Assembly (NCBI GenBank): GCA_965662235.1
Contig: CBFIGY010000045.1
Location: forward strand, 1-21,240
Direction of reading: 5' to 3'
Origin: an uncultured bacterium
GTDB lineage: Bacteria; SAR324; NAC60-12
DNA length: 21,240 bases
In this document: positions 19,367 to 20,917 of the stretch, piece by piece
Numbering within the stretch: the stretch's first letter is position 1
How the letters are laid out: the number at the start of each line of letters is the position of its first letter
Program-made: the position numbers and the translations under genes
The notes under the pieces: generated by a model
What the model was told of the DNA's origin: nothing
What the model saw: the letters and a program-made list of their open reading frames with translations, nothing else
The model's database searches: none

Positions 19367-20023
19367 ATGAGTGACTATCAGTTGGTGTCCGACATTCCGG
19401 ACGATTTATTGGAACATTACCTGACGCAACCGGTCATTGCCATTGATTCGGAAATGCACGGCCTGCGGCTGTACCGAGACGAGGTCTGCTTGAATCAGAT
19501 CTGCGATGGTGAGGGGCGCGTGTGCCTCGTGCGTCCGGAAGGGGGATGCCCACCGAACCTGAAGCGACTCCTGACCGACCCGAACGTCACCAAGATTTTC
19601 CACTACGCTCTTTCGGATGTGGCCTTCATTCACACGTCGTTGGGGGTGCAGGTCCAGAATTTCTGCTGCACGAAGGTGATGAGCAAGCTGGTCCGGACCT
19701 ACGGCCAGCGCCATGGACTGAAGGACCTGAGCAAGGAGTTGCTCGGAGTGGAGATGGAGAAGGAACAGCAGCAGACCAACTGGTCCCGTGCAGATCTTTC
19801 TTCAGAGCAGCTGAAGTACGCGGCCAACGATGTGCTGTACCTGGTGGCGATTTACGACAAACTCACTGAAATGATTGAAAATCGCCCTCCGCTTTCTACC
19901 GGAACCACGGTCAAGGAACTGAATGAACAGGCCCAGGCCATGCTGCCCGGAATGGTGAACCTCCTCATCCACGGATACGGTGACGAAGACCAGGGGTGGC
20001 AGACGACGTTATTCTGGCACTGA
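19367..20023 (+). CDS. rnd: Ribonuclease D family 3'-5' exonuclease (DEDDy, short form without HRDC)
   Basis: AAGAGGAG SD. ExoI IAIDSE, ExoII KIFHYALSDV, CTKVMSKLVRTY...HGLKDL, KEQQQTNW, ExoIII QLKYAANDVLYL. Confidence 0.9.
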   Translation: MSDYQLVSDIPDDLLEHYLTQPVIAIDSEMHGLRLYRDEVCLNQICDGEGRVCLVRPEGGCPPNLKRLLTDPNVTKIFHYALSDVAFIHTSLGVQVQNFCCTKVMSKLVRTYGQRHGLKDLSKELLGVEMEKEQQQTNWSRADLSSEQLKYAANDVLYLVAIYDKLTEMIENRPPLSTGTTVKELNEQAQAMLPGMVNLLIHGYGDEDQGWQTTLFWH

Positions 20024-20917
20024 GCGACGTGGGTGCAGCTTCTTGAATTTTTCCTGAAGCTTTTCAAAGTTTTCCGGCTTCAGAGACTGCAGGCGCCGAA
20101 CGTACCGCACGTCCCGAAACTGCTGAACGGACCGAATATCGGCTCCTCGGTCCTGAAATGCTTGGGCGGACAACTCCCGGAGCTGCCGCAGCCCCAACCC
20201 GAGCGGAGCAAGCTGCTCCTTCAGCAGTTCCCGGATCGCTTGGTCACTGAGTCCAGATCCCCACGCATTGACCCAAAAATCAGTGGTTTCCGGGAATTTC
20301 TTCTGCTGCTTCAGGTACTGCTGAAGACGCTTCCGGCCACTGGCTCCTAAGGGGACCTCCCACGATTCGGAGCCCATCACCACCACCATTCCTGTTTTTT
20401 TCTGATTCAACGAAGCCTTCTCCATCCGCGACAGTTGACTACTGGTCCAACCACAGCTGTAGGCGAGCTCAAGCAGAAGCCGGTTCCGGTTTTGCTCAAA
20501 TCCGCGGGTGGGTTCTTCCAGCAACCGGTGCAGCGCTGCCACATCGCCTTCTTCCCGCTCCAGCTCCGGAAAGGGCTGCGTCCAGGTGTAGTGCTGAATG
20601 GGATTGAAGGGCAGGTCTCCCTGCTGAGCCAAGTACGCAAAAAAGGAACGAAGCCCAACCAACCGTGTGGCACAGGTGCCCACCTTCCAGTGCTCCTGCA
20701 CCTGCATCTGCTGAAGGTAACGCTCCACTTCCCGTCGTCCCAGATCCGACCACTCAAAGGCTTCCGGAAGATCCAGCTGCTCGCTAAAGTTCTGACAGAA
20801 TTGCAGAAAATGAGTCGTTGCTTTAACGTACAGCTCTATGGTCGAGACGGATAATCGTTTTTCAACTTGCAAAAAAAGTCTATAGTCGGAGATAATTCGC
20901 CTTTCATCCACTCGCAT
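20009..20917 (-). CDS. XerC/XerD-family tyrosine recombinase homologue with a degenerate active site (pseudo-recombinase)
   Basis: 302 aa with a GGGGGTGA SD. N-terminal SAM-like domain ([32 protein letters not shown]...NP). [25 protein letters not shown] and C-terminal HPR. Most catalytic residues are replaced. Confidence 0.85.

Follow-up and report, generated by a model that had tools for sequence, protein, structure and literature searches.

A conserved, catalytically degenerate Xer protein encoded near a dif-like site in uncultured marine bacteria

Among the closest described counterparts of the locus examined here is the site-specific recombination system XerC/XerD–dif of Escherichia coli, known as CodV/RipX in Bacillus subtilis, which unlinks replicated chromosomes: two paralogous recombinases bind one arm each of a dif site at the replication terminus, and each exchanges one strand pair. 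We analyzed a 21,240-nucleotide contig of an uncultured bacterium (CBFIGY010000045.1 of assembly GCA_965662235.1; hereafter the window), which encodes a full-length XerC/XerD homologue stripped of most of its catalytic residues (hereafter the pseudo-recombinase) close to a dif-like site. Like the XerC/XerD system, it combines a full-length two-domain Xer fold and its HPR tail with a XerD-like paralogue and a single 28-bp site, in which 11-bp arms flank a 6-bp centre and one arm is better conserved (PMC5357621; this and the other articles cited by PMC number are drawn on in excerpt). It departs from that system in that six of seven active-site residues are replaced, the profile scores fall far under the cut-offs, and FtsK was not found, while in the XerD-like partner Lys replaces Arg I and Arg replaces His II. 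The reading that we favour, tentatively and at a little under an even chance, is that the pseudo-recombinase is the second, non-cutting subunit of a Xer/dif machine that works independently of FtsK.

Other Xer systems share parts of this arrangement. The streptococcal and lactococcal 'XerD' protein YnbA (NCBIfam NF002685) lacks the C-terminal region and, in the excerpts of its report, neither binds nor recombines difSL (PMC1914069). Both YnbA and the window protein are chromosomal Xer-like proteins conserved in their lineages despite an incomplete catalytic tetrad (PMC1914069), but the window protein keeps the C-terminal HPR tail and adjoins a dif-like site. NF002685 (PRK02436) was not among its matches at E-values up to 1, and the two are independent cases. 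In XerS/difSL and some archaeal XerA/dif modules the gene likewise lies within ~1 kb of the presumed site in many genomes, and XerA systems are independent of FtsK (PMC5357621). Their recombinases are complete and act alone, whereas the linked recombinase of the window falls short of being complete and sufficient: the site-linked protein is apparently dead, and a separate XerD-like enzyme is encoded elsewhere. At the plasmid sites cer and psi and in CTXphi integration, one Xer protein is purely architectural, a single strand pair is exchanged, and the junction is finished otherwise (PMC5357621, PMC3442271). There, both proteins are competent and the site imposes the one-sidedness; here, it would be fixed by the protein, and at a chromosomal site. 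In the literature covered, in which subscription journals are incompletely represented, the streptococcal protein is the only conserved Xer-like protein with a defective active site that was found, and neither a dead partner at dif nor a loss of FtsK in SAR324, probably the order in question, is described.

Fold, active site and conservation of the pseudo-recombinase

The gene and its parts are as follows.

20009..20917, reverse strand: Xer-like pseudo-recombinase gene P0001 (302 aa, stop included), from the open reading frame, Pfam, AlphaFold2 and the ratio of non-synonymous to synonymous substitution rates (dN/dS)
20624..20866, reverse strand: N-terminal SAM-like core-binding (DNA-binding) domain, amino acids (aa) 18–98 (PF13495, 40.4 bits; PF02899, 24.1 bits)
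20117..20533, reverse strand: degenerate catalytic domain, aa 129–267 (PF00589, 27.4 bits against a cut-off of 27.1; residue map and alignments)
20027..20068, reverse strand: C-terminal helix and HPR tail, aa 284–297 (alignments; helix 284–294 in the model)

The reading frame begins with ATG and runs through 302 aa without an internal stop, as the preliminary description of this DNA had reported. Its strong Shine–Dalgarno sequence held in part, in that the AGGGGGTGA stretch immediately 5' of the ATG is plausible but closely spaced. An AlphaFold2 model built from 34 family members (predicted local distance difference test, pLDDT, 87.8) places the helices of the N-terminal domain at residues 24–43, 61–74 and 79–99, and its best structural matches in Foldseek are XerA, IntI, Cre, XerH and XerD (E 1.7e-9 to 1.8e-7). 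PF13495, PF00589, the model and Foldseek thus agree on the two-domain fold of a tyrosine recombinase, but the catalytic set of that family is absent. The protein aligns end to end with the XerC (TIGR02224) and XerD (TIGR02225) equivalog models, yet scores 89.3 against a cut-off of 335.15 and 84.3 against 329.6, respectively, about a quarter of what membership in either would take.

Alignment with HMMER to solved Xer chains, with MAFFT to reference XerC/XerD proteins, and a position map reproduced every substitution listed in the preliminary description. By the residue table for the tyrosine recombinase family (PMC2943603), six of the seven active-site positions are replaced in the window protein and Arg II (R247) is the sole survivor. 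GLRxSE has become GWTSSQ, so that Arg I is T158 and Glu/Asp I is Q161; HxLRH reads RQLRE, with R244 for His II, R247 retained and E248 for the next His; LLGH reads FRDV, with V270 for His III; and IYTH reads SLKP, with L279 in place of the Tyr nucleophile. The β2–β3 hairpin of the model (strands 176–181 and 184–189) contains neither Lys nor Arg, in line with the reported loss of the hairpin Lys. T158, Q161, R244, R247 and E248 fall inside the catalytic-domain match, and V270 and L279 lie just 3' of it. What had been described as preserved is indeed so by Pfam and alignment, namely the N-terminal domain (PF13495), the GADIRSVQ motif and the C-terminal HPR, of which H295 and R297 do not vary in the reference XerC/XerD alignment and hardly vary in the second alignment. 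The C-terminal helix and tail form the segment that makes subunit-to-subunit contacts in Xer and Cre-type recombinases. As a side observation, the best solved-sequence match of the window protein is PDB chain 9i5v_14, a chain of 401 residues deposited as 'Ribosome-associated translation inhibitor RaiA'; its residues 13–297 align as a canonical Xer recombinase, and it looks like a fused or merged gene model.

In Cre, only the nucleophile Tyr and the hairpin Lys are strictly required for >5% activity (PMC2943603). Because both are gone, the window protein should be catalytically dead. That it is still a recombinase working with non-canonical residues, for example with Tyr273 of VRYV as nucleophile, is very improbable: the candidate Tyr precedes the canonical position by six residues and Arg II persists in 31 of 32 orthologues, but the VRYV Tyr is not a conserved feature, this stretch being free of Tyr in most orthologues, and the two residues that Cre requires (PMC2943603) have disappeared together with four others.

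For the comparative work, G000 denotes the window's genome, f1 its family, f2 a sister family in the same order, and f3–f7 five further sister families. Full-length, stop-free orthologues of the pseudo-recombinase occur in 32 of 41 related genomes, at identities of 25–79%. Of the 64 genomes of f1 and f2, 43 matched the family profile strongly (192 bits or more), as did none of the 24 genomes of f3–f7, where the best scores, as for the XerD-like genes, were at most 116 bits. Four of the 43 (G006, G014, G024 and G026) were flagged with one internal stop; the same places are stop-free over query residues 7–298, and the flags are probably due to the profile extending beyond the start codon. Among 1.84 billion representatives, the family amounts to ~29 clusters at 50% identity, all with the degenerate catalytic site, and a sharp boundary at ~176 bits separates it from canonical Xer proteins. 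Its source assigns one family member to a SAR324 cluster metagenome-assembled genome, and the order holding f1 and f2 is probably SAR324. A quick maximum-likelihood tree of 39 chosen rows (16 of 34 pseudo-recombinases, 12 of 30 XerD-like proteins, one third recombinase and ten XerC/XerD references named by their sources) recovers the pseudo-recombinases as monophyletic, with 99 in the Shimodaira–Hasegawa approximate likelihood ratio test (SH-aLRT). On the XerC and XerD models, 12 orthologues scored 60–130 bits with a weak preference, XerC being higher in seven of eight from f2 and XerD in three of four from f1.

Every one of the 32 orthologues lacks part of the catalytic set. None keeps His III; His II is retained in two, Glu/Asp I in one, and Arg II in 31. 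The remaining positions divide the families: Arg I persists in one of 19 f1 proteins versus ten of 13 f2 proteins, and Tyr in two of 19 (the others having Leu, Phe or Met) versus 12 of 13. The loss of the nucleophile, as first described, is therefore borne out for the window protein, and it is common in f1, but it is not a trait of the whole protein family. From this distribution across f1 and f2, the family ancestor appears to have already lacked both His residues and the GKG-K hairpin, with f1 having since lost more.

The preliminary description had proposed that the gene is retained despite the loss of catalysis, whereas a gene in decay would be expected to have intact close relatives and a dN/dS near 1. 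Against the 79%-identical orthologue of G002, dN/dS is 0.13 at a dS of 1.05 (Nei–Gojobori); in the same pair of genomes, the XerD-like gene has 0.11, the strongly constrained exonuclease gene next door 0.029 and the gene of the P-II protein 0. Nine positions of the window gene vary in contigs from three marine DNA runs; six of the changes are synonymous and three are conservative non-synonymous ones. The pseudo-recombinase is thus kept under purifying selection and is not decaying. Fast evolution (25–40% identity across the order versus 46–69% for the XerD-like protein) and long end branches on the tree are what a gene en route to becoming a pseudogene might show, but that explanation is hardly credible, contradicted as it is by a frame intact in 32 of 32 orthologues, by the dN/dS and by persistence through order-level divergence. 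One marine RNA-library run gave zero contigs on the gene and is uninformative on expression.

The dif-like site and the other recombinases

Three further features, two of them on other contigs of the same genome, enter the argument.

19259..19286, no strand assigned: dif-like site ATGTTCGATAA TGTAAA TTTTCGAACAT, 28 bp, 11-6-11 inverted arms (pattern search)
G000 C42:11897-12808 (locus L039 1501-2412), reverse strand: XerD-like recombinase, 304 aa (TIGR02225, 232 bits against a cut-off of 329.6)
G000 C11:69155-70120 (locus L003 1039-2007), forward strand: third Xer-like recombinase, 322 aa, canonical R-K-HxxR-H-Y set, no HPR tail

The nearby symmetric site of the preliminary description proved to have the architecture of dif, two 11-bp arms around 6 bp (review PMC5357621), and its inner ATAA-N6-TTAT is identical to that of an archaeal dif quoted in PMC11840125. 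It lies 0.7 kb from the pseudo-recombinase gene and, read on the strand of that gene, consists of a variable arm, the centre and then a conserved arm, TTATCGAACAT. At up to three mismatches it is unique in G000, with no control hits. A degenerate pattern (up to two mismatches) finds it in 19 of the 24 other f1 genomes, mostly in single copy, and in one of 16 f2 genomes; over all 41 genomes, the forward pattern gave 27 hits versus five for the reversed control. Site and gene are 0.7–1.5 kb apart in 11 genomes of five genera, an adjacency of the XerS/difSL type. Environmental contigs from the three DNA runs, each from a different study, leave both arms unchanged and show a single central variant at 19273.

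A linked site usually stands ~80 bp upstream of the neighbouring RNase D-like gene. In G008, G010 and G017, however, the exonuclease gene has stayed next to the pseudo-recombinase gene but the site maps to a different contig, and in G004 and G007 the site is 97 kb and 638 kb away from the pseudo-recombinase gene, so the site is not merely an operator of the RNase D-like gene. In the latter two genomes, over two contiguous 200-kb stretches, cumulative GC skew peaks locally within ~20 kb of the site, and across the site in G007 the share of coding on the + strand changes from 68% to 39%. Because the skew itself is small, this evidence for a terminus location is supportive but weak. The site is also found within ~0.1–2 kb of a contig end in G012:C12, G014:C258, G015:C63, G019:C180 and G020:C53 as well as in the window; strain variation or inserted elements at dif could have broken these assemblies.

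The 11 linked sites were oriented by gene strand, independently of the site sequence; they come from related genomes, and the comparison is a description rather than a statistical test. The gene-distal arm is TTATCGAACAT or a near copy of it, with five variants and 19.6 bits. The gene-proximal arm has nine variants and 15.6 bits, and its variation falls mostly in the inner four bases. The linked sites have two arms and two SPECIFICITIES, one arm being conserved and the other variable. In four genera of f2, a single site combines a shared right arm, TAATCGAACAT, with a CCNCGG centre and an unrelated left arm; this form was found in four of 19 f2 genomes, and the other 15 gave no candidate. The asymmetry of the arms in the linked sites, and in f2 the sharing of a right arm next to an unrelated left arm, point to a site that may be read by two binding specificities.

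An inventory of Xer genes and ftsK, run as a check on the preliminary description, gave six PF00589 matches in G000, which is 96.9% complete, and among them were a XerD-like and a canonical third recombinase. The XerD-like protein has a single orthologue in 39 of 41 relatives (identity 35–87%). The 30 orthologues examined all carry Lys at Arg I (GLKVxEL), Arg at His II (RxLRH) and Tyr or Phe at His III, and they retain Tyr, Arg II and the basic hairpin. Since Cre R173K is active in vivo, although inactive in vitro, and Cre W315Y/F is active (PMC2943603), this unusual enzyme may, by analogy, be functional.

FtsK was not found. In G000, the gamma domain (PF09397) and the FtsK/SpoIIIE motor (PF01580) each gave no match, and the motor exceeded its cut-off in only two of the 41 genomes; control genomes matched as expected, and at 96.9% completeness the absence is not proven. 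FtsK-gamma activation, which belongs to the XerC/XerD–dif system, thus has no counterpart found here. A bacterial order without FtsK would be unusual. The searches also met proteins of 620–870 aa (P0147–P0184 and others) with at least two stretches matching the Xer profile, probably tandem or fused pairs of tyrosine recombinases.

The third recombinase is encoded by a gene that is flanked by a TonB-like gene and tatC. All 25 f1 genomes carry it once, and it was found in none of the 16 f2 genomes. It might alone resolve dimers in f1, in the manner of XerH, XerS or XerA, with the pseudo-recombinase, and perhaps the XerD-like protein too, as a displaced relic kept as an accessory or regulator. 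This has some appeal, given that all catalytic residues are present, that the f1 site pattern is distributed alike (19 of 24 f1 versus one of 16 f2 genomes), and that losses of Arg I and Tyr are concentrated in f1 and mostly spared in f2, as expected for a takeover in f1. We nevertheless consider it rather unlikely. Genomes of f2, in which the third enzyme is lacking, have a site that shares the conserved right arm, which shows that such a site can exist without that enzyme; the arms differ consistently once oriented by the pseudo-recombinase gene; the third enzyme has no Xer-type HPR tail, and its gene in G007 lies 291 kb away from the site; and selection on the pseudo-recombinase is as strong as on the XerD-like gene.

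Proposed role of the pseudo-recombinase at dif

In the FtsK-independent machine that we propose, the pseudo-recombinase, which folds as a full Xer recombinase, would still bind DNA and sit on the variable, gene-proximal arm of the single 28-bp site, while the XerD-like enzyme encoded on contig C42 would sit on the conserved arm, TTATCGAACAT. The retained C-terminal tails may hold the two proteins together. With nucleophile, Arg I and hairpin Lys missing from the window protein, only XerD-like subunits could cut, and the dead subunit would be an architectural or allosteric partner choosing which strand is exchanged; it may also replace the missing activation by FtsK. The Holliday junction would then be resolved via another route, with dimer resolution as the presumed outcome. 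The pairing of a conserved arm with a conserved, slowly evolving XerD-like protein (46–87% identity), and of a drifting arm with a fast-evolving pseudo-recombinase (25–79%), is as expected of a site shared by two proteins.

Complex prediction for the pseudo-recombinase and the XerD-like protein gave a score of 0.60, whereas none of three controls exceeded 0.00; the runs share no less than 68% of contacts, and the pLDDT of the partner is 76 or more. Of 157 solved complexes 116 pass the mark applied, as do two of 215 mismatched pairs, and a score of 0.60 or less occurs in just 18 of those 157 solved complexes and in both passing mismatches. The predicted complex offers weak support, and its pass may reflect likeness only, because similar complexes (Cre, XerH) have been solved. 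A weak hint of partnership comes from a single genus, g15: in the two genomes where no pseudo-recombinase was found, the XerD-like protein ends ~10 residues past the Tyr helix and has no HPR tail.

Several observations weigh against the proposed role at dif. The activity of the XerD-like enzyme is not assured, because its Arg I is Lys and its His II is Arg. All 25 f1 genomes searched have a canonical third recombinase, and because the f1 site is nearly palindromic that enzyme alone could serve it. One-sided exchange leaves a Holliday junction whose resolution is unexplained. The tree recovers each group but puts the pseudo-recombinases with neither the XerC nor the XerD references. Evidence for a terminus location comes from two 200-kb stretches of weakly skewed genomes, and twenty 20-kb samples across the one-contig genome G007 showed no clear sign pattern in GC skew. 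The linkage of gene and site could itself be inherited gene order, because the P-II and RNase D-like genes are co-linear too. The suggestion of the preliminary description, a partner of an active XerD at dif, has gained circumstantial support from the one XerD-like gene per genome, the asymmetric site, the tails and the weakly supporting complex prediction; it is complicated by the non-canonical active site of that partner, by the failure to find FtsK and by the canonical third recombinase.

A more specific version of the proposed role can be drawn. It would be a heterotetramer at dif in which a dead subunit in the XerC position replaces FtsK-gamma as both allosteric activator and strand selector, the working recombinase is rewired (Lys for Arg I, Arg for His II), one strand pair is exchanged and another enzyme finishes the junction. 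As a whole we hold this version to be unlikely; if true, site-specific recombination machines would gain their first natural pseudoenzyme subunit.

Neighbouring genes and a role outside dif

Two genes flank the pseudo-recombinase in the window.

19367..20023, forward strand: RNase D-like DEDD 3'-5' exonuclease gene (PF01612, 135.9 bits)
20943..21239, forward strand: P-II (glnB-type) gene, cut by the contig end (PF00543, 106.8 bits)

The exonuclease gene is convergent with the pseudo-recombinase gene, and their 3' ends overlap by 15 bp. By tblastn it stands beside the pseudo-recombinase gene in 15 of 32 loci, all in f1; it is a conserved neighbour and, on gene order, a candidate member of the system at most. 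The P-II gene is present in 27 of 32 loci, in both families, and is divergent from the pseudo-recombinase gene in the window and in the loci with annotated reading frames; in the window the two start codons are 25 bp apart. Downstream of P-II in L021 is glnA, and a glutamine synthetase gene is also present in locus L038. A marine metatranscriptome contig of 220 nt spans 20924–21143, the start of the P-II gene, with no differences, and begins 19 nt upstream of the P-II ATG and 7 nt from the start codon of the pseudo-recombinase gene. Because this RNA contig reaches 20924, the glnB promoter must lie inside the pseudo-recombinase coding sequence.

This arrangement bears on a possibility that we rank as somewhat improbable, a dif-independent DNA-binding protein that has been repurposed as a regulator of the divergent glnB(-glnA) or as a terminus organiser like B. 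subtilis XerD. The recurrence of P-II across both families, the closely spaced starts, the position of the promoter and the glnA gene of L021 would suit a regulator. For an organiser there is a described model: at XDS, B. subtilis XerD binds terminus DNA sequence-specifically outside recombination and unloads SMC (PMC12322038, PMC11840125), and SMC and ScpA were found in G000. The B. subtilis protein, however, is also an active recombinase, and dispersed half-sites were not seen in G000, where arm-like half-sites are not enriched (nine versus eight and 26 versus 20 control hits). There is thus no sign of XDS-like sites with the arm motif. On the window's own contig (C45), half-site matches at up to one mismatch occur only at the dif-like site and not near glnB. 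A DNA-binding role of this kind also leaves the HPR tail and the two-armed site unexplained, and conserved synteny by itself may be inherited gene order.

The rest of the window (1–19184) encodes a GCS2-type ligase fragment, FliM/FliN-like proteins, a TPR protein, a RelA/SpoT homologue, Tex, a GDPD phosphodiesterase, a 7TMR-DISM hybrid histidine kinase and a 524-aa TerB-domain protein. The reading frames at 6087–6731, 15116–15457, 15420–16559, 16598–17104 and 17194–17532 had no Pfam match at 1e-5.

In the textbook account of Xer/dif, two paralogues regulate one another's catalysis and FtsK switches the reaction. In these bacteria FtsK was not found, one of the paralogues appears to have remained a pseudoenzyme while the order diversified, and the active site of the other is rewired. 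The analysis yields candidate dif sites and a Xer gene inventory for a widespread uncultured marine group, and three genes with a 28-bp site are small enough for testing in E. coli. Together with streptococcal YnbA, the family suggests that dead Xer paralogues may recur. If both proteins act together at the site, these bacteria would offer a natural experiment on the architectural versus the chemical role of a subunit in the synapse, on how XerD-type activity is switched on without FtsK, and on how a one-sided exchange is completed.

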